Virus genome (UHGV): UHGV-1351408 | DNA length: 64,000 nucleotides | Reading direction: 5' to 3' (one strand) | Source: a virus | Made by a program: the position numbers and the translations under genes | Part shown: one piece after another, positions 6,013-60,561 of the stretch | How the letters are laid out: the number at the start of each line of letters is the position of its first letter | Position numbering within the stretch: the stretch's first letter is position 1 | Notes under the pieces: generated by a model | Told to the model about the DNA's origin: nothing | The model's input: the letters and a program-made list of their open reading frames with translations, nothing else | Databases searched by the model: none

Positions 6013-6435
6013 TTATTTCTCTCTCAGTTGGTTAAGTTTCTTTCTAGAGCATTTTAAGTTTTCTGATGAAGAAAAGTCAAGTGTCTTTTCAGAACGTGGA
6101 TAGTAATGTCTATCCCAAGAAGTTTCAACATCGTTAATCAGTGACGCTAGATTACACAGGTCTGTACCACTTTGCAACCTCTTTTTAAGAGAATCTAGTA
6201 AAGCAACTGTGTCTTTAGCTTTACGTCTCGCTGTAGCAACATCTTTCATATGCTCAAATACAGAGCATTTTAAGTCATCTTCATAGTTTTCAGACAACTC
6301 TATTTCATGTTGTATATCAACCATTCTCCTGTGATGGTGAGCATATTCCCGTTGAGCAGCAATGTCAAGTTCTTCCAACTTCTGCAAAGCCCTAACAAAG
6401 TCAGCTATGTCTGGGTGAACAAACATTTTCTGCAT
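6013..6435 (-). CDS. hypothetical protein
   Basis: 140-aa ORF; first gene of the minus-strand replication operon. Confidence 0.5.
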   Translation of the reverse strand: MQKMFVHPDIADFVRALQKLEELDIAAQREYAHHHRRMVDIQHEIELSENYEDDLKCSVFEHMKDVATARRKAKDTVALLDSLKKRLQSGTDLCNLASLINDVETSWDRHYYPRSEKTLDFSSSENLKCSRKKLNQLREK

Positions 6436-6610
6436 GTAAGCCTCTTTTAAGTAACTATTAAGTTTTAATCTTTTATCTTAACGTATTCTATACGTTATAC
6501 TTTAAAGCTTTTTAAAAGCTATTAAATAATCTTTTAAGAGTTTTAAAGTATCTGTATAGTTAAACTGTTAAGTAACCTTTTAAGTAAAAACCCACTTCGC
6601 AAAGATTAAC

Positions 6611-6633
6611 ACCTTGTCAAGTACATTGTCAAC
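6611..6633. promoter_or_regulatory. 23-bp motif ACCTTGTCAAGTACATTGTCAAC, two TTGTCAA half-sites 11 bp apart
   Basis: Near-identical copy at 48894-48916; both lie in divergent intergenic regions upstream of plus-strand gene blocks. Confidence 0.4.
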
Positions 6634-6692
6634 TTGCTTTTTATAATTTTTTGCAGTAATGTATGAGGTTAATGATTTTAGAGGGAGTAAAA

Positions 6693-9392: not shown

Positions 9393-9453
9393 TTAGTGTT
9401 GACAAGGTGCTCAGGGAAGAGTACCTTATACTGTATCTTGTATAGGAGGGCTT

Positions 9454-11956: not shown

Positions 11957-11966
11957 AAGTTGTTGA

Positions 11967-11995
11967 CATAGAAAATTTGGTGAGTATACTGAGCA
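11967..11995 (+). promoter_or_regulatory. sigma70-like promoter (TTGACA-16-TATACT)
   Basis: gTTGACAtagaaaatttggtgagTATACT directly after the ligase gene, firing into repeat region I. Confidence 0.4.
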
Positions 11996-14168: not shown

Positions 14169-14381
14169 ATGGCTCTTAAAAAGTTACATCCCCGAAGCGG
14201 TTATGGTAAGATAATTGACGATACAGATGGCTTTACAGTCTTTACAGTTATCTGTCAAGATGATTCACAGATTGAAAAGGCTCTTGATGATTACCTTAAC
14301 GATGAACGTGAAAAGGTTAGAGCTACAAACATAGATTCATTGATTGACACTTCACGTAAACGGAAGAAGAAAGATGAATGA
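14169..14381 (+). CDS. hypothetical protein
   Basis: 70 aa. Confidence 0.4.
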   Translation: MALKKLHPRSGYGKIIDDTDGFTVFTVICQDDSQIEKALDDYLNDEREKVRATNIDSLIDTSRKRKKKDE

Positions 14382-14673
14382 AGTTTTTGACCCTTATGCT
14401 CCACAAGATGATTGGGAGGCTGACAGAGAGGCTGAAATGGAGAGTTATGTTTGTCCAATGGATGTAGACGAAATGAGAGACTTCGTTGCACACCGTTTTA
14501 AGAAAGAGATTAAATCCAGAGGTCTTTCTCAAGAGCAAGTTGCTAAAATTTGTGGTATCTCTCAGGCTCGCGTATCCAACATAATTAATCTCACTGGTAA
14601 TGTCTCTCTTGAGTTTATGTTGGAAGTATGTGAAAAATTTGGTGTTAATTTTAATTTAAGGCTGGCAGATTAA
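14374..14673 (+). CDS. helix-turn-helix DNA-binding protein (XRE-like)
   Basis: ORF 14344-14673; start at MNEVF; HTH-like QEQVAKICGISQARVSNI. Confidence 0.45.
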   Translation: MNEVFDPYAPQDDWEADREAEMESYVCPMDVDEMRDFVAHRFKKEIKSRGLSQEQVAKICGISQARVSNIINLTGNVSLEFMLEVCEKFGVNFNLRLAD

Positions 14674-16367: not shown

Positions 16368-17267
16368 ATGTCACAAGCTGATTTGAGTTACAAAAATATC
16401 CTGAACCATGTTTTATCCGTTGGTGAACTGCGTACTACACGAACTGGAGATGTTATCTCTGCATTTGCTCCACCACAATTTCGTTTTGATATGCGTACTG
16501 GTTTCCCACTCTTAACATCTAAACAGGTGTTTACACGGCAAGTTATTGGGGAAGCTTTATGGTTCCTGAATGGTGAGAATAAACTTGGTGAACTTCGTTA
16601 CCGTACTTGGGGTGAAAATGATGGGGAACGCTGGACTATCTGGTCAGATGATTTTAAACGCTGGTTGAGTTCTAATTATTCTTCTGAACAAGACTGGTTA
16701 GAGGATGCAGGTGGGAGAATCTACGGAGTTCAGTGGAGAAACTTTGAAGGTCATAATGGTTGTGTTGTAGACCAGTTAGAAACCTTAGTAACGAAGATGA
16801 AGGGTGATATCACAGACCGTTACATGCTTGTTAATGCTTGGAATGCAGCAGATATTGCAGCAAACTCAATGGCTCTAGCACCTTGTCATGTTCTGTTTCA
16901 GATTTATATTACTAACGAGGGTGAAGTTGACTTACAATGGTATCAGCGTTCAGTAGACACCTTTTTAGGACTTCCGTTTAATATTGCATCTTATGGTTTT
17001 ATTCTGGAAGTTCTTTGTAAGATGACTGGATACACTCCACGGTACTTGATAGGTGTCTTTGGGGATACTCAGATTTATCAGAATCATATGAAGCAGGTTT
17101 ATGAACTGATGAACAATGAAGAGTTCCATGCACCAACTTTTGAGATTGGTATCCCACTTAACACTTTAAGTGACTTAAAACACCTCACTGCAAGTGACTT
17201 TATCGGTGGTATTAACAATTACCAACATGCAGGAAAGATTGAAGCACCTTTGTCAGTAGGTAAATAA
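16368..17267 (+). CDS. thymidylate synthase (ThyA-type)
   Basis: Active-site region MALAPCH and QRSVDTFLGLPFNIASY. Confidence 0.85.
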   Translation: MSQADLSYKNILNHVLSVGELRTTRTGDVISAFAPPQFRFDMRTGFPLLTSKQVFTRQVIGEALWFLNGENKLGELRYRTWGENDGERWTIWSDDFKRWLSSNYSSEQDWLEDAGGRIYGVQWRNFEGHNGCVVDQLETLVTKMKGDITDRYMLVNAWNAADIAANSMALAPCHVLFQIYITNEGEVDLQWYQRSVDTFLGLPFNIASYGFILEVLCKMTGYTPRYLIGVFGDTQIYQNHMKQVYELMNNEEFHAPTFEIGIPLNTLSDLKHLTASDFIGGINNYQHAGKIEAPLSVGK

Positions 17268-17270
17268 AAC

Positions 17271-17300
17271 AAAAAAGGCTCCCGTAAAAAGGAGCCTTAA
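17271..17300. terminator. convergent terminator hairpin
   Basis: AAAAAA-GGCTCC-CGTAAAAA-GGAGCC between the converging thymidylate synthase and 17304-17675 genes; strong T-run on the minus strand. Confidence 0.55.
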
Positions 17301-17303
17301 ACT

Positions 17304-17675
17304 TTACTTTTCAGTATTCTTTGTGTTCTTTTCAGTAATAGCTTGGAGGGCTGATACTGATTGAGCCAGATTGTTCACACTATCAGAGAATTTATCAAGA
17401 GTCTTAGTAAGTTTTGCGTTCTCACCCTTAACATTCTCTAACTGGACTTTCTGGTTCTCCATCCCTAGCTGAAGCAGCCTCATATCAGACTGTAAATCAC
17501 GAATAGCTGAATAATTACTTTTGGAATAATTATCTAACTGCTGTAACTTTGTTGTGATAGACACTTCTTGCTTACCATCCGAGACTTGCATGGTGGTATA
17601 CATACCAATAACACTAAAAATACCAACTACAATTGCACCAATATTATTTTTAAAAGCTTCCTCTAGCCACTTCAT
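17304..17675 (-). CDS. membrane-anchored coiled-coil protein (possible i-spanin-like)
   Basis: 123 aa; N-terminal TM segment IGAIVVGIFSVIGMY then coiled-coil region. Confidence 0.45.
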   Translation of the reverse strand: MKWLEEAFKNNIGAIVVGIFSVIGMYTTMQVSDGKQEVSITTKLQQLDNYSKSNYSAIRDLQSDMRLLQLGMENQKVQLENVKGENAKLTKTLDKFSDSVNNLAQSVSALQAITEKNTKNTEK

Positions 17676-41284: not shown

Positions 41285-41360
41285 TGGAGAATCCGAAGGG
41301 ACTCGAACCCTTATAAACCTGTTTTGCAGACAGGCACATAGCCATTTCTGTCACGGATTC
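41285..41360 (-). tRNA. tRNA-Cys(GCA)
   Basis: Acceptor GAATCCG/CGGATTC, T-loop TTCGAGT, anticodon loop CTGCAAA, U73, CCA encoded. Confidence 0.7.
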
Positions 41361-41364
41361 AAAT

Positions 41365-41457
41365 TGGAGGAAGATACCAGACTTGAACTGGTACACCGAT
41401 TTCTCAGTTACTGGCAGTTTAGCAAACTGCTCCCTTACCTTTTAGGGTTAATCTTCC
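41365..41457 (-). tRNA. tRNA-Ser(GCT), long variable arm
   Basis: 93 nt; anticodon stem GCAGT/ACTGC, loop TTGCTAA. Confidence 0.6.
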
Positions 41458-41458
41458 A

Positions 41459-42193
41459 TTATTTCTGTAATGCGTTCTTCATTTCTGGTGTTGCAATAGT
41501 GTCAATCACACCAGTTTTACAAGCATCGTCAAACCAGTCTGGTAAGATACCTGCTAAGAACCCATTGATATTCGTTTTAAGGTACTCTGCAATAAGGGCA
41601 GCTTCTTCTTCAATCATCTGCACAACTTCATCTGCATAAGCTGTAATCTTCGAAATACCTTCATTAATCTTACTAACAGCTTGGTTAGCTAAATCAGAAA
41701 TAGTATCAAGACCTTTGTCAATAGCATCTTGTAAGTCACTTAATACATCATTAACACCGTCTAGTGCACTGTTAATCATATCAATAGCTTTTTGACCATA
41801 CTCTGTAGCAACACCCATAATACCACTAAATGGTGTACAACCGACTTGTTCACCTGCTGCACCCATAACATTAGAATAACCTTTTGCTACCTGCATACGT
41901 GATGAAAACTCATCAATGGACTTTTGACCGTAATCCGTCAGCGTTTTGGTAGTTGATGTAGTACTTGTCAGACTCGTTGTAAAGCTGTTAAGCAGAACTG
42001 TTGTAAGTCCAGCAGCAACAAGTTTATCCTTTATTGTAGGGTCTGTTACAGAGCTAATAGAGCTTACAAGTGATGTAGAGGCAGCTACGGTTCCACCGAG
42101 AACTGCTGCACCAGTAATAAGGGGATTAGAAAACCCTCTACCGGTTTTTAAGAGATTAAAAATCTCCTTACCTTGTTCTGTCATCTCTTTCAT
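41459..42193 (-). CDS. hypothetical Ser/Thr-rich protein inside the tRNA array
   Basis: ORF 41459-42256; start moved to MKEMTEQ (AAAGGTG RBS) to avoid tRNA-Phe. Confidence 0.45.
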   Translation of the reverse strand: MKEMTEQGKEIFNLLKTGRGFSNPLITGAAVLGGTVAASTSLVSSISSVTDPTIKDKLVAAGLTTVLLNSFTTSLTSTTSTTKTLTDYGQKSIDEFSSRMQVAKGYSNVMGAAGEQVGCTPFSGIMGVATEYGQKAIDMINSALDGVNDVLSDLQDAIDKGLDTISDLANQAVSKINEGISKITAYADEVVQMIEEEAALIAEYLKTNINGFLAGILPDWFDDACKTGVIDTIATPEMKNALQK

Positions 42194-42209
42194 TAAGCAC
42201 CTTTGAAAT

Positions 42210-42286
42210 TGGTAGTCCAGTGGGATTTGAACCCTCTTCTCATGTTTTTCAGACACGCGCTTTAACCATATAAGCTACTTGGACTA
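42210..42286 (-). tRNA. tRNA-Phe(GAA)
   Basis: Acceptor TAGTCCA/TGGACTA, anticodon loop CTGAAAA. Confidence 0.6.
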
Positions 42287-42291
42287 TAAAT

Positions 42292-42367
42292 TGGGGTGAC
42301 CTACGGGATTTGAACCCGTATAGACCATGTTCACAGCATGGGTCATTACCATTTATGATAAGGCCAC
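42292..42367 (-). tRNA. tRNA-His(GTG)
   Basis: Anticodon loop CTGTGAA; extra 5' G and C73. Confidence 0.7.
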
Positions 42368-42398
42368 ATTTAAGGACTCTCGTAAGAACCCTTAGAAG

Positions 42399-42474
42399 TG
42401 GCAGCGGCATAAGGATTTGAACCTTAATAAGACAGCTTCAGAGACTGCTGCATTGCCAGTTATGCTATACCGCT
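42399..42474 (-). tRNA. tRNA-Gln(CTG)
   Basis: Loop CTCTGAA, G73. Confidence 0.5.
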
Positions 42475-42479
42475 AAATT

Positions 42480-42558
42480 TGGTACTCCATATCGGATTCG
42501 AACCGATACATAACACAGATTTTAAGTCTGGCCTCTCTGCCAATTGGAGTAATGGAGC
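42480..42558 (-). tRNA. tRNA with Leu anticodon TAA, short variable arm
   Basis: 79 nt; loop CTTAAAA; Leu-type D-loop AATTGGCAGAG; A73. Confidence 0.5.
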
Positions 42559-42560
42559 AT

Positions 42561-42636
42561 TGGCGGGGGATGTTGGAATTGAACCAACTTCTTCGATTTC
42601 AAAGACCGAGGTTTTAACCTTGTAAACTAATCCCCT
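42561..42636 (-). tRNA. tRNA-Gln(TTG)
   Basis: Anticodon stem TCGGT/ATCGA, loop CTTTGAA, G73. Confidence 0.55.
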
Positions 42637-42644
42637 TTAAATCT

Positions 42645-43202
42645 TTACTTTCTTAGTGGATGAATAAAGAATGCCAACATAACTCTTTCCCTTGAGAATG
42701 CTCTTTCTTCTGGGACAACACTTTTTAGCTTCCACCCAATATAAATTCTCCAGTAAAACTGTTTACCAAAGACTTTAATTGATGGGATAAAAGCGAATAA
42801 TCCCCAAGCATTGCTGTTCCACATTAGGAGATAACCTGTCTGATTATCTTCAGGGTTAGAACTTACGTTGATATTACCTTTCCACTTAGTAACATCTTTT
42901 ACATCTCTTCCTAACACATGGTAAGAGAAGTTATAAGCTTTGTTTCTCCAGAGCCAACCAACTCTCTGCATATAGACACCAAGCTTACCAATCTTTCTAA
43001 TCTTAGCCCATCGTTCGATATGACCTTCATCACCATCAATTGGGTTGTCATAAGTTTCCATCCATCTGAACCCGAAAGGTAAGTGTCCTTTCTTCTCACT
43101 GTAGAATGGAACTACAAAAGGTGCTAAGATAACTGCTAAGATTGCTGCAAATGGCTCTAATAAAGCTAAGAAAATCCATGAAGCATACTTCAAATATCTC
43201 AT
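42645..43202 (-). CDS. membrane protein inside the tRNA array
   Basis: 185 aa; N-terminal hydrophobic segment WIFLALLEPFAAILAVILAPFVVPF. Confidence 0.45.
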   Translation of the reverse strand: MRYLKYASWIFLALLEPFAAILAVILAPFVVPFYSEKKGHLPFGFRWMETYDNPIDGDEGHIERWAKIRKIGKLGVYMQRVGWLWRNKAYNFSYHVLGRDVKDVTKWKGNINVSSNPEDNQTGYLLMWNSNAWGLFAFIPSIKVFGKQFYWRIYIGWKLKSVVPEERAFSRERVMLAFFIHPLRK

Positions 43203-43441
43203 TGTCTAATCCTAGTAAGGAGGTAAACATTATTATCTGTTTCTGAGTTTTCTGGTAAAGCTGTCTCAAAATTGACGCTTTTAAATTGTCTCCCACCAAA
43301 GTAATGACCAATAAATTTTTGTACTTTTATTGGGTCACATTCCCAGCCGACTTTCAAGAAAATGTGGGTATCTATAGTGGGAACCCTTACAAACTCAATA
43401 CTATTGGAATTTTCATGTTCAACGACGATTAATGTTTGCAT
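43199..43441 (-). CDS. hypothetical protein
   Basis: 80 aa. Confidence 0.4.
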   Translation of the reverse strand: MQTLIVVEHENSNSIEFVRVPTIDTHIFLKVGWECDPIKVQKFIGHYFGGRQFKSVNFETALPENSETDNNVYLLTRIRQ

Positions 43442-43459
43442 AAATCTCTCTTATTTATC

Positions 43460-43535
43460 TGGCGCAGGATAAGGGACTTGAACCCCTATTAACAGCTTCG
43501 TAGACTGTTGCTCTATCCATTTGAACTAATCCTGC
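43460..43535 (-). tRNA. tRNA-Arg(ACG)
   Basis: Acceptor GCAGGAT/ATCCTGC, loop CTACGAA. Confidence 0.7.
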
Positions 43536-43650
43536 TTACCTACGAGAACACCATACAGTTTTTCACAAACTTTGCTTTTACGTCTGTTTAGATATGACGC
43601 TCTAAACTTTTTTTGCAATTGACTTATTACTCATAGTGTTCTCCTAAAAT

Positions 43651-43728
43651 TGGTGTTCCAAGACGGATTCGAACCGTCACTAGTACAAGGTTTGAGCTTG
43701 CATCCTCTGCCAATTGGGATACTGGAAC
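43651..43728 (-). tRNA. tRNA with Leu anticodon CAA, short variable arm
   Basis: 78 nt; loop CTCAAAC; D-loop AATTGGCAGAGG; A73. Confidence 0.5.
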
Positions 43729-43729
43729 A

Positions 43730-43804
43730 TGGTACTCACTAAAGGACTTGAACCTTTTTCTTCATCTTGTAAGGGTGATGTTTTACCATATAAACTAAGC
43801 GAGT
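43730..43804 (-). tRNA. tRNA-Val(TAC)
   Basis: Loop CTTACAA. Confidence 0.5.
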
Positions 43805-43900
43805 GTGAAAGAGGTCTGAAGTTGTGCCACTAACTCAACTCCGTGGAATTTGTTACGGTCTTCAGTTGACTCAAAGTGGTCTTTCACTTGACCTCTGAAT

Positions 43901-43976
43901 TGGTGCTCCCACAAGGATTCGAACCCTGATAAGTTGCTTACAAGGCAACCGTAATAGCCAATTATACGATAGGAGC
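43901..43976 (-). tRNA. tRNA-Thr(TGT)
   Basis: Anticodon stem GTTGC/GCAAC, loop CTTGTAA. Confidence 0.7.
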
Positions 43977-43983
43977 ATTAATT

Positions 43984-44058
43984 TGGAGCATCCAGAGGGA
44001 ATCGAACCCTCAACCTCAGTTTGGAAGACTGTAATTTTCCCGTTTAAACTATGGATGC
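43984..44058 (-). tRNA. tRNA-Gly(TCC)
   Basis: Acceptor GCATCCA/TGGATGC, loop CTTCCAA. Confidence 0.65.
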
Positions 44059-44064
44059 ACTAAT

Positions 44065-44140
44065 TGGTGGAGTCACTGAGAATTGAACTCAGTTCCCAAG
44101 TTTGCAAAACTCGAATTTTAACCATATAAACTATGACCCC
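44065..44140 (-). tRNA. tRNA-Ala(TGC)
   Basis: Loop TTTGCAA. Confidence 0.6.
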
Positions 44141-44145
44141 AATTT

Positions 44146-44221
44146 TGGTACAGGTGGAGGGAATTGAACCCATCGTCTTACTGATTAAGAGTCAGCCGCA
44201 TAACCATTTTGCTACACCTGC
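44146..44221 (-). tRNA. tRNA-Lys(CTT)
   Basis: Loop CTCTTAA. Confidence 0.55.
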
Positions 44222-44228
44222 ATTAATT

Positions 44229-44305
44229 TGGTACACCTAGAGAGATTCGAACTCACACTGAGCAGATTCTAAGTCTGCTGCCTCTACCAATTGGGCTATA
44301 GGTGC
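44229..44305 (-). tRNA. tRNA with Leu anticodon TAG, short variable arm
   Basis: 77 nt; anticodon stem GCAGA/TCTGC, loop CTTAGAA; D-loop AATTGGTAGAGG; A73. Confidence 0.55.
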
Positions 44306-44560
44306 ATTAAATCTTTTTAGAGAACTTCTAAGAACCTAAGCAACAAGGTTCCACAACAAGCTGTAATAACCTTAGAAGCCCTCTAAAAAGACCTAATTTG
44401 GTCTTTGCATAGTCTTGTTTAATCCGGTGACTAGAACCTTTGGAGAGCTTGATATTATCTCTTCTCCGTGACACCTACTAGGTGCTTTATCAGTGTGTAC
44501 GACAATACACGAGGGATAAACCGAAAATGCGAGCAAGCATGGACGGTGTAAATCTTATTA

Positions 44561-44650
44561 GGCGGTAAGTAAAGGAGTCGAACCCTCACCGTATCTCTAC
44601 AGTGGCAACAGTTTTCAAGACTGTTTGGCTGCCATTAGCCGCTACCTACC
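44561..44650 (-). tRNA. tRNA-Ser(TGA), long variable arm
   Basis: 90 nt; anticodon stem ACAGT/ACTGT, loop CTTGAAA; 3' CC encoded, terminal A not. Confidence 0.6.
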
Positions 44651-44663
44651 CCTAATAAGACTT

Positions 44664-44746
44664 TGGCATGGGACGGAGGAGTTGAACCCCTTTGAAACGG
44701 TTTTGGAGGCCGTTGCTCATGCCTTAGAGTCTTAACATCGTCCCAC
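44664..44746 (-). tRNA. tRNA-like element, anticodon unassigned (CCA/Trp possible)
   Basis: 83 nt with good acceptor (GTGGGAC/GTCCCAT) and T-arm, but D/anticodon region does not fold canonically. Confidence 0.3.
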
Positions 44747-44888
44747 ATTATAATTCGAAGCTTACCGTATTATCTCAACACTGTAAAGCCCCTTCTCAGA
44801 TTATTTACATGTTCTGGAAAACATGAGATACAGACCACCTCCCTACAGGAAGACCCGCTTAGGTCGTCTAAGTAATCTGCTAACTAAT

Positions 44889-44965
44889 TGGCACACCCTA
44901 CAGGATTCGAACCTGTAACTAACGATTTAGAAGACCGTTGCTCTATCCAATTGAACTAAGGGTGC
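44889..44965 (-). tRNA. tRNA-Arg(TCT)
   Basis: Anticodon stem ACGGT/ATCGT, loop CTTCTAA. Confidence 0.7.
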
Positions 44966-45302
44966 ATTAATCTTTAAAGACTCTCTTAGAAAGCCCTTAA
45001 AGATGCCCACCTTATTAATCATACCGTGGGCTAGTACGCCAAATTCTTTGATGAGGGATTGGAATACCTCACTGGTGTTTAGCCTATCAAGCTACTGCCA
45101 GAAAAACATTGTCGTTTGCATTTATTTTAAATTTGCAAAATAGACGCTACGCAACGAAAACTATTCAGAATATGTACAACAAATTTCCCCACATTGTGTT
45201 ACGTCTAACGCTCATGTATTGGTGTTTGAATTATACATATTATGAATTATTTTTAGTTACTATAAAGTAGTCACATCTTAATGTCAACAACTTTATTGAA
45301 AT

Positions 45303-45378
45303 TGGTACTGGTAGGTGGAATCGAACCACCGATGTTCCCTTATCAGGGGAGTGTTATAACCTTCTTAACTATACCAGC
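45303..45378 (-). tRNA. tRNA-Ile(GAT)
   Basis: Loop CTGATAA. Confidence 0.6.
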
Positions 45379-45379
45379 T

Positions 45380-45456
45380 TGGAGGTTCAGATGGGAATCG
45401 AACCCACATTCATAGGGCTTATGAAACCCCTGCATTACCTTATCTGCGACTGAACC
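45380..45456 (-). tRNA. tRNA-Met(CAT)
   Basis: Loop TTCATAA; GGG/CCC run in anticodon stem. Confidence 0.55.
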
Positions 45457-45534
45457 ATAATAAGTACCCTAGTTAGAGAAACTGTTGAGTGGGTGTTTCC
45501 AGCCGCGCAGGTGTTTCTCAGTTAAGGGTGAATT

Positions 45535-45610
45535 TGGTAGAAGTGGAGGGATTCGAACCCATCGCCTGTCAGATTAAAAGTCTGCCGCATCACCATTCTG
45601 CTACACTTCC
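45535..45610 (-). tRNA. tRNA-Lys(TTT)
   Basis: Loop CTTTTAA. Confidence 0.6.
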
Positions 45611-45814
45611 ATTAAATTATCTTTGTAGATAAGCTACCCAGACTTGCTTAAGGTCTGTAGCGATGTGCCTTTTTGGGTTTAAATCTAGAATTTACCCTTT
45701 CACCCTTTGTGGTCGCATACTCACAGGTAAGCTTAATAACTTATCTACAAAGATAATTACCAGACCGTTGTTTATCATCTTAAGTGCTACCATTACACCA
45801 ACTCGACATCTGCC

Positions 45815-45838
45815 GAGTGAAGGAATCGAACCTTCGCC
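45815..45838 (-). other. isolated tRNA T-arm-like module (GAAGG-TTCGATT-CCTTC) without an acceptor stem
   Basis: Canonical T-arm, but no 5' partner for the would-be acceptor within 100 nt; lies inside a conserved-box spacer element. Confidence 0.35.
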
Positions 45839-46068
45839 TTTTCTTTACCGGAGAAATAGATTGTTTAAGTTTTGCTGTAAACGGTCTTCTGTAAATTTGT
45901 TGAGCCAGACCAAGTTTTAAATTTTTTCAAAATTAAATTGGCTTGAAAATATCATACGTACTTGCTGAATTTGGTCTTCTGCTCCTTTAAAGAATACTCG
46001 TAAGAACTCTTTAAGGGAGGGGCTAAATAGCCCTCTCAAAACATCATTTTGAAATACTTATTATAATT

Positions 46069-46145
46069 TGGCGGCTACGATGAGACTTGAACTCACATCA
46101 TCTCCCGTGACAGGGGAGTATTTTCTCCAGTTAAACTACATAGCC
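46069..46145 (-). tRNA. tRNA-Asp(GTC)
   Basis: Anticodon stem CTCCC/GGGAG, loop CTGTCAC. Confidence 0.7.
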
Positions 46146-46150
46146 TCTAT

Positions 46151-46238
46151 TGGTGTGCCGTGTAGGAGTCGAACCTACCGAGTCTCAATGACAAGGGATT
46201 TACAGTCCCCACCGCTACCATCTACGGGATAACGACAC
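46151..46238 (-). tRNA. tRNA-Tyr(GTA), long variable arm
   Basis: 88 nt; loop CTGTAAA. Confidence 0.7.
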
Positions 46239-46247
46239 ATTTTAATT

Positions 46248-46324
46248 TGGCGGTTAGTCAGGGATTCGAACCCTGTGCCATTCGCTTAACAGGCGACCGC
46301 ACATACCTTATGTGCTTCCTAACC
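46248..46324 (-). tRNA. tRNA-Asn(GTT)
   Basis: Loop CTGTTAA. Confidence 0.6.
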
Positions 46325-46400
46325 TTAATACATTACCAGACCGTGTTTTTCTTTTATCCGCAAAAAGTAGTTTGTTGCTGAATACGGTCTTCTGTAAAAT

Positions 46401-46477
46401 TGGAGGCGGGTGCAGGAGTCGAACCTGCCGATACCATGCTAATGAGACATGTGAGACGCCCTTTCTCTATACCCGCA
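46401..46477 (-). tRNA. tRNA with CAT anticodon (Met or Ile2)
   Basis: Loop CTCATTA; 1-72 mismatch. Confidence 0.45.
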
Positions 46478-46568
46478 ATTCTTAATGACCAGACCAAATC
46501 TCTTCTTTGTCCGATTTACCTTCAGATGAATAAGATTAAGTTTGCTGTAATTGGTCTTCTGTCAAAAC

Positions 46569-46646
46569 TGGCGTTCCAGAAGGGATTTGAACCCTCAGAT
46601 ATCCACTTTGAAAGAGTGGTGACTTTACCATTTTGTCTACTGGAAC
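46569..46646 (-). tRNA. tRNA-Glu(TTC)
   Basis: Anticodon stem CCACT/AGTGG, loop CTTTCAA. Confidence 0.7.
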
Positions 46647-46653
46647 ATTAATT

Positions 46654-46730
46654 TGGTCTCTGTTGGAGGACTTGAACCTCCGGCCTTACCGCCCCAAACG
46701 GAACGCTCTACCAAGCTGAGCTAAACAGAG
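46654..46730 (-). tRNA. tRNA-Pro(TGG)
   Basis: D-arm AGCTCAGCTTGGTAGAGC, loop TTTGGGG. Confidence 0.7.
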
Positions 46731-46848: not shown

Positions 46849-46877
46849 ATATTAAAGGGTATCAAACACATTGTCAA
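46849..46877 (-). promoter_or_regulatory. near-consensus sigma70 promoter for the tRNA operon (TTGACA-17-TAATAT)
   Basis: Minus-strand read: TTGACAatgtgtttgatacccttTAATAT, about 110 nt upstream of the first tRNA (Pro). Confidence 0.45.
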
Positions 46878-48393: not shown

Positions 48394-48765
48394 TTATTTT
48401 TTGAGAGTCGCTACAGCAGAGAACGTTGGTTTGTTATCTGTCTGTTGTTGACCACCATTATCAGGAGTCTTCTTAGTGTCTGCTGCAAGTGCTTTCATCT
48501 CACCTGCTGAGTGAGTAAAGATAGTTTTACCGACCTCAATCATACTCTTGATGGTTACGTCATCTGTGTTTAACCCGAACTCTGCAAGCTTAGCCGCGTC
48601 CCTTGTAACAATCGCCTCAAACAGCTTTGCAGCGAACTCAGCAGAATTATCAATGGTCAGTTGAGCTTTTACGAGCGAGCTTTTGTTACGAGAGCCTTTT
48701 GGTCTTCCAGATGGGTTTCCAGACTGGCCTTTTTTAAACTGGCCTTTGTTTGTTCTGTTTTTCAT
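48394..48765 (-). CDS. hypothetical basic protein with AT-hook-like GNPSGRPKG motif
   Basis: 123 aa. Confidence 0.5.
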   Translation of the reverse strand: MKNRTNKGQFKKGQSGNPSGRPKGSRNKSSLVKAQLTIDNSAEFAAKLFEAIVTRDAAKLAEFGLNTDDVTIKSMIEVGKTIFTHSAGEMKALAADTKKTPDNGGQQQTDNKPTFSAVATLKK

Positions 48766-48893
48766 TGGTATGCCTCTTATAAGACCTCTTAAAAGGCTTT
48801 TAAGATAAAAGATAGATATCCAGAAAGATATCTGTTTAAATAGCCTTTTTAGAGGAACCTTTTAAGTTATCTTCTAAGTATTTATAAGCCTAC

Positions 48894-48916
48894 ACCTTGT
48901 CAAGTACTTTGTCAAC
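48894..48916. promoter_or_regulatory. second copy of 23-bp motif ACCTTGTCAAGTACTTTGTCAAC
   Basis: Differs at one position from 6611-6633; divergent intergenic region upstream of the 49-57 kb plus-strand block. Confidence 0.4.
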
Positions 48917-49014
48917 AACTTTTTTAACTTGTAATAGTTCTTGACTTGTTGTATGGATTACTGTACCATCTTACTTAAAGCTGTAGGTCTGCCTTGTTCT
49001 ACAAAGGAGACTTA

Positions 49015-57156: not shown

Positions 57157-57166
57157 AATATCTTAA

Positions 57167-57195
57167 GAGCCTCCTTAATCGGGGGCTTTTTAATT
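57167..57195 (+). terminator. rho-independent terminator ending the plus-strand block
   Basis: AGCCTCC-TTAATC-GGGGGCT followed by TTTTT. Confidence 0.55.
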
Positions 57196-57199
57196 TTTA

Positions 57200-58758
57200 T
57201 AAAATTTTATCGGTTGTCCCAACCTCTGGGTCACCATCATATGTGAATAAGATATCTACCCTTCTTAATAGCCTTCTTAATCTTACTCTCTATATAGTTA
57301 TATAGTACTATACAGTATCTTAGTAACTATCTAGTGGTCTTAATAGCCCTCTGTATAGCCCTTCTAAACACTCTTCTAACAAGCCTTCTTAACAGCCTAT
57401 ACAATCACCTTAACCGTACCTCTACACCCTCTTAGAAGCCCCTATACACCTCTTAATCTCTATGTCAGCTATGATACCCTCTATATGTGTTCACTAGGGA
57501 ATACTAAGCCTCTATATAGACTGTTTTAACAAACTTAACAGGAATATCTTCACAGACCTTATCTCACAAGGTCTAACACGGTACTAACAAGGTATCTTAT
57601 AAGCCTGTTTATGCCTGTATTTTTAAAAGACTGTATAGGTAATTATTCAGAATTTTAAAATTTTTATAAAATAGGACTATCAAGTCATTTTTTAGGGTCT
57701 TTGAAGGAACTGAAAAATATCTGTAGAAGATGTATATCTGCTTGGTAGCCCTTAACATCCCTGTAACATCCCCTTTGCAGAATTTTAAAATATCATTAAC
57801 AATCTCTTAACAGCTATTACATTCTCTTAACATCTCTTCAGAGGTCTTAACAGATTCTTAACAGAACTAACAAGGGTGTAACAAGTTCTTAACAGTCAAT
57901 ACATGGTCTTTATAGTTTCTTAACAGATGACTAACAATAGCTAACAAGTTAATTTTTAAGAGTTATTTTGTAGGGATTGGTAACAATACCAATTAAGATA
58001 ATTAACAAGTTTCTAACAAGTGTTTAATCTTTTTAACAAGCTATTAACATGGTCACTATCTCTTTTCTTATCATTCCCTTTCCCTCTTAGTGATTCTCTA
58101 AATAGCCCTCTTAAAAGCTCTCTATAGCTCCTTGTAAGCTCTTTTAAGCCTCTTCCTAGTAGTTACACCCCAACTGTACAGACACCTTTTTATAGGGCTT
58201 TACAGGGGCTTTAAAGGCTATGTCAAAGGTTCTTACAAGGCTTTTACGTGGTCTTAACAGAGATTTAACAAGGGGCTAACAAGTTGCTAACAAGTGCCTT
58301 AAAAGCATAACTATGTAGGGATTGTTAAGAAATTGTTAAGAAAATGTTAAGGGGGCTAGCATTTACGTAACTTTTAAGCTATCTATCACGTAACTTTGAA
58401 GTAACTTTATAGCCCCTATAACATACTTTTTAGTGACTATCAAGGGGATTGTTTAGTTATTCACAAGATACTAACGAGATAATAAAGCTCACACCCTTAT
58501 AAGATTCTTTTAAGCCTCTATAAAGCCCTGTAAAGAGCTTTTAAGGGTGAGTTAATGCAATCCCTTAAGTTAGATTGATAAGGCTGTTATAGCGCTTTAT
58601 AGAGCGTTTAAGTGGGCCATCCCCTTTCTGGGGTTATTGGCTTATATTTAAGTTGATTTGATAAAAGGCTATAGAGTAGACTATAGAGTTATTGCTTTTA
58701 AGGTCTGATAAGATTCTGAAAAGGTGAGGAAAGGGATTGTATAAGGATTGGATAGACG
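57200..58758. repeat. 1.6-kb non-coding iteron-rich region (more than 25 TAACA(A/G)G copies, both orientations) with an AT-rich tract
   Basis: Dense runs at 57790-57960, 58010-58050, 58250-58300, inverted copies TTGTTAAG at 58320-58350; AT-rich 57290-57340; no ORF of 60 aa or more. Confidence 0.6.
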
Positions 58759-58782
58759 TAAAAAAGCCCCTGTGAGGGGCTG
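58759..58782 (-). terminator. rho-independent terminator ending the 58.8-64 kb minus-strand block
   Basis: AGCCCC-TGTGA-GGGGCT with T-run on minus strand; second hairpin GGGGCT-ATTT-AGCCCC at 58796-58811. Confidence 0.55.
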
Positions 58783-58821
58783 TATAAAGGTATCTGGGGC
58801 TATTTAGCCCCGTTGCGTCGA

Positions 58822-59468: not shown

Positions 59469-59999
59469 TTACAGATTTTTGATTGTCTCGTCAATGTCTT
59501 TTTCAATATCTTTTAAAGTTTTTTCTAAGTTCTTGATATTGAACGTTAAACCTTCTCCCAGTGTCTTAGAGTAACCGCTAGGACGTAAATCATAAAGCTC
59601 GATTTCTTCCACTAGAGAAAGGTTAACAGCCCAGCCACCTATGCCGTAGGCCATTGAAACGGTATTTACAGGGGCTTTATAGAACTTGTTCAAGGACTTG
59701 ATAGAACGTTCATAAGCCATTTTATAACCATTTAAAAGGTTTTTAACGTGGTTGTGAACGTTTTTACAATCATCTAAGTAAAGACCTAAAAACATCGGGA
59801 GAAGTTCCGCGACAGCTTGCATAAAGTGAGAGACTACAACGGTGGAAACATTGCGACGATGGACGTAATAAGCCCCGTTTTCTGATTTGGTAATGGTTGC
59901 AAAGTGTACACCATTGCAACGAAATTCATAGGTATCTTTAACAGGCTTTGACATTACAGCATTTGAACGAATGAAGTTGATAGCTTGAAATTTGTTCAT
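59469..59999 (-). CDS. hypothetical protein
   Basis: 176 aa; type-A cassette upstream. Confidence 0.5.
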   Translation of the reverse strand: MNKFQAINFIRSNAVMSKPVKDTYEFRCNGVHFATITKSENGAYYVHRRNVSTVVVSHFMQAVAELLPMFLGLYLDDCKNVHNHVKNLLNGYKMAYERSIKSLNKFYKAPVNTVSMAYGIGGWAVNLSLVEEIELYDLRPSGYSKTLGEGLTFNIKNLEKTLKDIEKDIDETIKNL

Positions 60000-60075
60000 T
60001 TTAGAATCTCCAGTTTAGGACTTTATTTAGTGGGGAGGTTATTGCCTTCCCGTTGATTAGTAATTTACTTGTTTT
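60000..60075 (-). promoter_or_regulatory. type-A intergenic cassette (variant hairpin)
   Basis: GGGGAGGTTATTGCCTTCCC variant; followed by 145 bp extra spacer containing a TTGTCAAG motif at 60147-60167. Confidence 0.45.
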
Positions 60076-60219
60076 GATAGCTGATTGCAAGCAATTTTTT
60101 AAGTTTATCTATAAAGAATCTTTTAAGTGAATCCCTTTTAGATAAACCCCCTCGAACAAATGTACTATTGTCAAGGGGTATCGTCAAGTAATTTTTTAAA
60201 GTTTTTTATAAGTTATTGA

Positions 60220-60561
60220 TTAACTGATGAATATTTTTTCAGGCTTTACATAGCTGATACGCTGACTTTTTAGCAGGTCATCCCAGATTAGCGCGGCAAT
60301 ATGAGAATAGCCGGATTCACGTAAAAGTTTCATTGTTTTACTTCTCGTCTCAAAGCGGCTTGCGTAGTATTCACTGTTCAAGGTTGTTTTATTCCCTTCG
60401 TTGTCTGTATGGATGATTTGCATCACTTGAAAGGGGCTTACATCCTCACCTTTGTTCCACTGCTCAAAGTATTTTAGGCACTGCATAGGTGATATCTTAT
60501 CACTTACTTGAGTTGACCAAGATGAACCCTCTTTATCAGTAATTACAGTTACATAAGCCAT
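60220..60561 (-). CDS. hypothetical protein
   Basis: 113 aa; type-A cassette upstream. Confidence 0.5.
   Translation of the reverse strand: MAYVTVITDKEGSSWSTQVSDKISPMQCLKYFEQWNKGEDVSPFQVMQIIHTDNEGNKTTLNSEYYASRFETRSKTMKLLRESGYSHIAALIWDDLLKSQRISYVKPEKIFIS

Follow-up and report, generated by a model that had tools for sequence, protein, structure and literature searches.

The window, by which we mean the whole stretch of 64,000 nucleotides analyzed here (UHGV virus genome UHGV-1351408), is about 97% identical over kilobases to genomes of Escherichia and Salmonella Felixounavirus. By this sequence comparison it is a Felixounavirus, that is, a Felix O1-like myovirus of the subfamily Ounavirinae. 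Phages of this type are widely used for typing and biocontrol of Salmonella and E. coli. The genes are arranged in blocks of alternating direction, and three short intergenic stretches, referred to below as sites 1, 2 and 3, lie between or within them:

Up to 6435, minus strand: leftward genes for replication and nucleotide metabolism, including dNMP kinase and primase/helicase as judged from annotated relatives.
6013–6435, minus strand: first gene downstream of site 1.
From about 6672/6693 to about 17.3 kb, plus strand: DNA polymerase, ligase and other genes.
48765 down to 17.3 kb, minus strand: long block encoding a DUF5681 protein, a DUF2828/DUF7788 protein, 26 tRNAs, terminase and structural proteins.
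48394–48765, minus strand: DUF5681 gene, first gene downstream of site 2.
49.0–57.2 kb, plus strand: rightward block.
60220–60561 and 59469–59999, minus strand: genes flanking site 3.

Sites 1 and 2 occupy the two divergent junctions of the window, which the Felix O1 genome paper names 96/97 and 40/41 (PMC3185647). The authors of that paper described the temporal control of transcription as unknown, noted many internal terminators and found no RNA polymerase-modifying proteins (PMC3185647). GC skew changes sign at both divergent sites; we dropped this flip as a sign of a replication origin because the skew merely tracks gene direction. The cluster of 26 tRNA genes (41285–46730, minus strand) has strong single-box minus-strand promoters of its own at 46877, 46786 and 45287, and an Rfam search returned tRNAs only.

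The motif that drew attention to these junctions was first described as a 23-mer, ACCTTGTCAAGTAC(A/T)TTGTCAAC, at 6611–6633 and 48894–48916. Both sets of coordinates are exact, and the copies at site 1 (ACCTTGTCAAGTACATTGTCAAC) and site 2 (ACCTTGTCAAGTACTTTGTCAAC) differ by one base. Even with up to three mismatches tolerated, the window contains just these two matches, and 100 dinucleotide shuffles yielded none. Read on the minus strand, the 23-mer becomes GTTGACA-N6-TTGACAAGGT, i.e., GTTGACA(A/T)(T/A)GTACTTGACAAGGT, which amounts to two perfect TTGACA hexamers offset by 12 bp. The tandem −35 arrangement suggested in the preliminary description is therefore correct, but both hexamers are located on the complementary strand and point leftward. 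A related third pair had been placed at 60147–60167. We find it about 21 bp further right, at 60169–60187, where TTGTCAAG (60168–60175) and TCGTCAAG (60181–60188) read TTGACG-N7-TTGACA on the minus strand with a 13-bp offset (site 3). A relaxed tandem, TTGAC-N7/8-TTGACA, occurs three times in the window against 0.16 expected, each time on the minus strand and each time in an intergenic region.

Single TTGTCAAS octamers are weakly over-represented (17 versus 9.6 expected). Among the other −35 boxes reported for this DNA, those at 9399 (TTGACAAGGTG, plus strand), 13711 (TTGACAAGT, plus strand) and 46872–46877 (TTGACAATG, minus strand) are where they were said to be, but the one assigned to 11967 is in fact TTGACATAG, with its hexamer at 11963–11968. 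The 11-mer TTGACAAGGTG has three exact copies, at 9399–9409 (plus), 6610–6620 (minus) and 48893–48903 (minus). At 9399 it supplies the −35 element of another promoter, which points rightward (N17, TACCTT) and has been conserved in phage mistaenkt; this sharing suggests that promoter modules have been copied within the genome.

To compare the tandem hexamers with other boxes, every TTGAC(A/G/T) in the window was listed with its context. The strong intergenic boxes (11963+, 45287−, 46786−, 46877−, 48381− and 62228−) combine an A-rich prefix (AAAAAG..G), TTGACA and a −10 element at a distance of 16–18 bp. In each motif copy, the same A-rich prefix precedes the upstream hexamer and a TAnnnT follows at 17–18 bp. 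The elements on the minus strand are as follows:

6633..6655, minus strand: site 1, A-rich UP-like tract upstream of the −35 element, reading CTGCAAAAAATTATAAAAAGCAAG.
6627..6632, minus strand: site 1, upstream TTGACA (working −35); perfect, preceded by the A-tract, invariant in 7 haplotypes from 3 genera.
6615..6620, minus strand: site 1, second TTGACA, 12 bp downstream and inside the spacer; invariant.
6603..6608, minus strand: site 1, −10 element TAATCT after a spacer of 18, with TGt in front (extended −10).
48910..48915, minus strand: site 2, upstream TTGACA (working −35), invariant in 10 haplotypes; identical with the −35 element of Felix O1 P41.
48898..48903, minus strand: site 2, second TTGACA; invariant.
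48887..48892, minus strand: site 2, −10 element TAGGCT after a spacer of 17.
60182..60187, minus strand: site 3, upstream hexamer, TTGACG here and TTGACA in all 13 other haplotypes.
60169..60174, minus strand: site 3, second TTGACA, 13 bp downstream; invariant in 13 haplotypes.
60159..60164, minus strand: site 3, −10 element TACATT after a spacer of 17; a promoter scan calls TTGACG-N17-TACATT.

The order of elements is the same at each site: an A-rich tract, TTGACA, a free linker of 6–7 nt, the second TTGACA, 4–6 nt that often include TG, and a weak TAnnnT. The AAAAAG(c/t)nnG prefix of the site 1 tract is common to other, single-box promoters of the window. In the window the upstream hexamer matches the consensus at six of six positions at sites 1 and 2 and at five of six at site 3; in all relatives the match is complete. 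The −10 hexamers are weak, with only three or four of six bases matching TATAAT, which is why a strict consensus scan missed sites 1 and 2. Since A-tract, upstream hexamer and TAnnnT align only on the minus strand, and since site 3 is located between two minus-strand genes, the element appears to work leftward. By sequence-level criteria the three sites would be leftward sigma70-type promoters, with predicted minus-strand starts at about 6595–6597, 48879–48881 and 60151–60152. The minus-strand genes begin 115–160 nt downstream of the promoters, at 6435, 48765 and 59999. The predicted promoters would serve the replication block (site 1), the DUF5681/tRNA/structural block (site 2) and a block of small genes (site 3).

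That both divergent intergenic regions carry promoters is already on record from computational work. The AYO145A record (KR014248) annotates minus-strand promoters over sites 1 and 2, and the Felix O1 promoter P41 was predicted as TTGACA(N15)TATAGG (PMC3185647), which is the upstream hexamer of site 2 paired with a different −10 element. Besides P41, the Felix O1 paper reports no other obviously homologous promoter sequences in the 40–41 or 96–97 intergenic regions (PMC3185647). As far as we could find, it had not been described before that the arrangement recurs at three sites, that the promoter at 96/97 is assigned a leftward direction, or that a second hexamer is under selection. Our literature search turned up no mapped transcription start for any Felix O1-like phage or other member of Ounavirinae and no usable transcriptome. 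RT-PCR on Felix O1 placed genes 41, 42 and 96–98, which lie beside sites 1 and 2, in a class with maximal transcript at 25 min (PMC3185647), so that the description of the adjacent blocks as "early" is doubtful. This class might require an activator, and its timing would be compatible with regulation through either sigma region 4 or an operator.

The selection on the individual elements was examined in homologous regions that had been gathered by way of their flanking proteins and not by way of the motif. This procedure gave 30 IMG/VR loci for site 2, 21 for site 1 and 20 for site 3, to which we added GenBank phages from other genera: mistaenkt (Suspvirus), Mordin and Michonne (Mooglevirus), FO1a, Fifi318, SPARTY and phiEa21-4 (Kolesnikvirus), and Wc4 and Wc4-1. 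Distinct haplotypes numbered 7 at site 1, 10 at site 2 and 13 at site 3 (30 in total, from three genera). Both hexamers are invariant across these 30 haplotypes; TTGACG as upstream hexamer is found at site 3 of the window itself. The linkers of 6–7 nt between the hexamers vary at 3–5 positions. Site 1 (6621–6626) shows ATGTAC, ATGCAC, ATACAC, ATGCGC, ATTCAC and AACCAC; site 2 shows AAGTAC, AAGGAC, AAGCAC, AATGAC, TTCCTC, AGCCTC and AGGGGA; and the 7-nt linker of site 3 occurs as ATACCCC, ACTCCCC, ATGCCCC, ATCCCTC and others. The site 1 linker is a hot spot of variation, with GTAC, GCAC, ACAC and GCGC found among genomes that are identical over the surrounding 60 bp.

The −10 elements vary in a different manner. 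At site 1, Felixounavirus and Suspvirus have TAATCT and Mooglevirus has TAGTCT, so that T-A-n-T-C-T is constant. Site 2 occurs with TAGGCT, TAGCCT, TAAGTT and TAGTGT, where the first T, the A and the last T are fixed, and site 3 occurs with TAACTT, TAATGT, TAGATT and TACATT. Judged from these alignments, a retained T-A-n-n-n-T with free inner bases is the textbook footprint of a sigma70 promoter, to which one extra selected hexamer has been added.

Absence from the homologous intergenic regions of related phages had been named as the observation that would speak against the motif. For the doubled box no such absence is seen: Felixounavirus and the Suspvirus mistaenkt have it at all three sites, and so does Mooglevirus wherever it was sampled (sites 1 and 2 by name). 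In the complete mistaenkt genome, these three sites are the only intergenic tandems. At both homologous divergent junctions, TTGACA-N17/18-TAnnnT with just one box is what Kolesnikvirus and the Wc4 group possess, with −10 elements TAGGCT and TACCCT in Wc4 and TACATT and TAGAAT in Kolesnikvirus. The single box in these distant relatives identifies the upstream hexamer as the ancestral −35 element and the doubled box at the junction sites as derived. The complete genome of phiEa21-4 contains one doubled-box promoter, TTGACA-TTCTAC-TTGACA-GGGGC-TAAAGT at 16494, with identical geometry; it opens a 1.2-kb noncoding repeat region of that phage.

What might the second TTGACA do? The sequences 16–18 bp downstream of it are AAGTGG at site 1, TACTTA/ACACTT at site 2 and GGGGGT at site 3, none of which is a TAnnnT. 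Because no −10 element is in register at any site, we can rule out that the second hexamer is a promoter of its own. As a whole, the motif is probably best explained as the −35-to-spacer core of leftward sigma70 promoters, in which the second TTGACA may act as a docking site for sigma region 4; that it offers region 4 a second place to dock is our best guess as to its role. The conserved unit is exactly TTGACA, the flanks differ between sites and the offset is either 12 or 13 bp, a combination that favors sigma region 4 as the reader. That region 4 can act at a downstream hexamer is made plausible by PR' of phage 82, where a −35-like element brings about a pause at +14/+15 that depends on region 4 and needs an RNA shorter than about 15 nt (PMC3326312); the 12–13 bp offset of the second TTGACA fits this limit. 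Against this reading speaks that none of the three sites has a −10-like pause element in register with its second hexamer. According to the model, the A-tract would hold the alpha C-terminal domains of host RNA polymerase, while sigma regions 4 and 2 would contact the upstream hexamer and the −10 element, respectively; transcription would proceed from about 6596, 48880 and 60152 through long conserved leaders into the three leftward blocks. The second hexamer may catch the polymerase before open-complex formation, or just after promoter exit, when the RNA is 12–13 nt long and region 4 is still bound to the enzyme. In either case it would tune recruitment or escape at the three promoters.

The preliminary description had tied the motif to DNA polymerase and to the 49–57 kb block. 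Each of these units turns out to have a conserved rightward promoter of its own, and the motif promoters face away from them:

6634..6662, plus strand: promoter of the DNA polymerase unit, TTGCTT-N17-TAATGT; −35 element invariant, −10 element TAATGT or TAGGGT, spacer variable.
6634–6639 and 6640–6655, plus strand: −35 element TTGCTT and most of the spacer of this promoter, both inside the A-rich tract of site 1.
48941..48969, plus strand: promoter of the 49–57 kb block, TTGACT-N17-TACCAT; called by the scan, invariant in the site 2 alignment.

At the polymerase junction the leftward and rightward promoters stand back to back (6627–6639), and what serves one as UP-like tract forms the spacer of the other. 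Because their −35 hexamers are separated by 1 bp, two polymerases would probably compete or exclude each other. A TATAAT at 6642–6647, in the spacer of the polymerase promoter, is not conserved.

This arrangement bears on the idea that the boxes themselves act rightward or bidirectionally, their plus-strand TTGTCA (five of six consensus bases) serving as −35 element for DNA polymerase and the 49–57 kb block. The near-palindromic TTGnCAA would permit such a reading, and at site 2 the scan does find TTGTCA(48909)-N18-AATAGT with a preceding TG, of which TG..AATA..T is largely retained across genera. Nevertheless we consider rightward action quite unlikely: sites 1 and 3 have no −10 element 16–18 bp rightward of either box, the TATAAT at 6642–6647 is 10 or 22 bp away and becomes TGAAAC or TGAAGA in relatives, site 3 has no rightward gene, and both rightward units are provided with the promoters listed above. 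The same TATAAT, together with the resemblance of plus-strand TTGTCAA-N5-TTGTCAA to a Pho box, is what could point to a host response-regulator site that couples the promoters to the phosphate state of the host, since pho promoters also have their −10 element about 10 bp downstream. PhoB binds direct TGTCA repeats, and the Pho box consensus CTGTCAT-N4-CTGTCAT has a fixed period of 11 bp. Here sites 1 and 2 have a period of 12 bp and site 3 has one of 13 bp, TTGACA and not CTGTCAT is what has been conserved, and TATAAT occurs only at site 1 of Felixounavirus: Suspvirus and Mooglevirus have lost it, and neither site 2 nor site 3 has one. A Pho-type site is accordingly extremely improbable. The strongest competitor to the sigma reading is an operator. 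In this case a phage or host protein would cover the −35 element and spacer as a tandem dimer and repress or activate the three promoters, thereby timing the leftward blocks. The obvious candidate is encoded by the phage:

14344–14673, plus strand: Cro/C1-type HTH protein with an HTH_3 domain (Pfam 4.6e-11; PHROG 1373).

This protein, which probably comprises 99 amino acids from the ATG at 14374 and has an acidic N-terminal tail, is the sole obvious transcription regulator that we found in the window. Two conserved units with a free linker do resemble a tandem dimer site, and in Felix O1 the transcripts of the genes next to sites 1 and 2 are maximal at 25 min (PMC3185647). Homologues of the HTH protein are confined to Felixounavirus, Suspvirus and Mooglevirus, the clade with the doubled box at sites 1–3, and are absent from the relatives infecting Erwinia, Hafnia and Pectobacterium. 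However, this co-occurrence represents a single evolutionary event, and phiEa21-4 contains the doubled-box promoter at 16494 without an HTH homologue, both of which weaken the link. XRE-type HTH proteins usually bind inverted rather than direct repeats. In addition, the offset is not constant between sites (12 versus 13 bp), and conservation is limited to the hexamer read by sigma region 4, with no extra flanking bases as another protein would need. We consider an operator somewhat unlikely.

The second hexamer could also be a functionless leftover of a 12-bp duplication that spread by copying among the three promoters. These promoters are indeed alike, the presence of TTGACAAGGTG at a fourth promoter (9399) indicates that promoter copying happens, and tandem hexamers of several geometries are similarly frequent in viral contigs. 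Against this stand zero substitutions at 12 hexamer positions in 30 haplotypes from three genera of about 78–82% identity, whereas the 6–7 linker bases change repeatedly, even among genomes that are 97–99% identical. A leftover is therefore very unlikely. If the second TTGACA is read by sigma region 4, as we prefer, one specific possibility is that it recaptures region 4 of sigma70 during promoter exit, at an RNA length of 12–13 nt, and holds the complex at the start of the leader. We regard recapture as rather unlikely. If true, the site would constitute an early-elongation checkpoint that could gate three large leftward units, for example because the pause gives a phage factor or the leader RNA time to modify the polymerase for read-through of the internal terminators noted in Felix O1.

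The three predicted promoters are followed by these leaders:

6436..6594, minus strand: leader of site 1, some 160 nt long and almost unchanged in three genera; contains CTTnnAAG motifs.
48766..48878, minus strand: leader of site 2, some 115 nt long and almost unchanged in 7 sequences representing 3 or more genera.
60000–60150, minus strand: site 3 leader, between the predicted start and the gene starting at 59999.

In Felixounavirus, Suspvirus and Mooglevirus the leaders of the doubled-box promoters are more conserved than the flanking genes. Those of site 1 (z = −2.6) and site 2 (z = −2.9) fold as long hairpins. All three contain CT(T)AAAAGG at about +11 to +14, and a G-run followed by a T-run marks the start at sites 1 and 3 and at the phiEa21-4 promoter. 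The leaders could be cis-acting RNA, an array of protein-binding sites or an origin-type unwinding region. Near-palindromic CTTnnAAG (CTTTTAAG/CTTAAAAG, CTTTAAAG, CTTATAAG) occurs 110 times in the window versus 44 ± 6 expected. It is concentrated in noncoding DNA, with clusters at 6444–6577, 48776–48871 and 58110–58695, and the corresponding stretches of phiEa21-4 and Wc4 are full of similar motifs. Between convergent block ends, at 57157–58821, lies a 1.6-kb noncoding region with dense short repeats (CTTAACA, CTAACAAG, TCTTAA, CTTTTAAG). Its counterparts are the ends of the mistaenkt GenBank record and 16471–17660 of phiEa21-4, where the doubled-box promoter stands at the start. The leaders and this repeat region may be more interesting than the motif itself.

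We also asked whether doubled −35 boxes form a general class of phage promoters. A pattern scan of IMG/VR for TTGACA-N6-TTGACAAG gave scattered matches at chance level. In the 109 matches outside Ounavirinae, TAnnnT peaks at N17 from the upstream box (10 versus about 2); hexamer conservation cannot be read from such matches because they were selected by the pattern. As controls, we searched IMG/VR for TTGACA-N17-TATAAT promoters with an extra TTGACA at varied positions. A second hexamer at +12 in the spacer occurs in at least 120 matches, with 47 clusters among the matches listed; the total is estimated at about 120–135 on the grounds that all 12 matches of a complete sub-scan fell among the 120 listed. 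Complete scans gave 115 matches in 53 clusters for a second hexamer at +10 and 98 matches in 45 clusters when the extra hexamer preceded the in-register −35 element by 12 bp. Since the +12 position is no more common than these matched controls, we reject a general class, and the survey lends no general support to a role that depends on this geometry. A literature search for "two −35" promoters returned nothing usable. Look-alikes in IMG/VR include marine T4-like contigs and one Clostridium-phage-like contig. Five marine contigs (L015, L047, L060, L102 and L110) and a 49-member cluster around L207 share TTGACA-AAG(C/T)nC-TTGACA-N5-TAnnnT, nearly the same 18-mer as site 2 of Felix O1; their nearest relative is pelagiphage HTVC008M. 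In L102 the tandem lies in a 45-bp gap between two opposite-strand genes and is thus antisense to both.

For the Felix O1-like phages, this analysis assigns a predicted, conserved host-type promoter to each divergent junction and to a third site, and fixes their direction. The three promoters share an unusual selected second −35 box and long, ultra-conserved leaders. If the second box acts through sigma region 4, they would illustrate promoter-escape control in a simple, natural form; should it prove to be no more than an operator, or redundant, the result amounts to routine promoter annotation.

Several known promoter types can be set beside these sites. A T4 MotA-dependent middle promoter has a MotA box (TGCTT) centered at −30 and depends on genes for MotA and AsiA; we rejected this type since the leftward promoters lack TGCTT at −30. 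The T4 late-promoter octamer TATAAATA occurs at 48879–48886 on the minus strand, just after the −10 element of site 2, where it is probably an A/T-rich start region. Other genera have TAATAAAA in its place, and sites 1 and 3 lack the octamer, so that a T4-like late promoter was rejected as well. The consensus sequences of alternative sigma factors were discarded on spacing or sequence. The sites of lambda CII and P22 C1 (TTGC-N6-TTGC at the PRE −35) are likewise short direct repeats that begin with TTG, are spaced by 6 nt and overlap the −35 region. In contrast to CII sites, which have a period of 10 bp, the unit here is a full TTGACA with a period of 12–13 bp, and because the −35 element is already perfect no activator is needed, unlike at CII-type sites with their poor −35 element. 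We found no CII homologue in this virulent phage, the only HTH protein found being of the HTH_3 and not the Phage_CII family, and a CII-type site was rejected on the basis of its unit, TTGACA, and its consensus −35 element.

The likeness to lambdoid PR' (phage 82 and lambda) consists in a −35-like hexamer downstream of the true −35 element, reachable by sigma region 4 as long as the RNA measures less than about 15 nt, and in an A/U-rich initial transcribed region (PMC3326312). Unlike PR', the doubled-box promoters come without an in-register −10-like pause element, and neither a Q-binding element nor a Q gene was identified; of the three features of the lambdoid pause module one is present, and pausing here is hypothetical. 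No Q-like protein was seen among the 20 window proteins scanned against Pfam and the 10 scanned against PHROGs. With canonical sigma70 coliphage promoters, such as Felix O1 P41 and those annotated in AYO145A, the three sites have in common the A-tract, the consensus −35 element, the 17–18 bp spacer, TAnnnT and the position at the head of a transcription unit. They differ from them in the second perfect TTGACA inside the spacer, which goes unremarked in the published Felix O1 and AYO145A annotations and is conserved as strictly as the −35 element itself. In this comparison the doubled box is a modest new variant of the host-type promoter.
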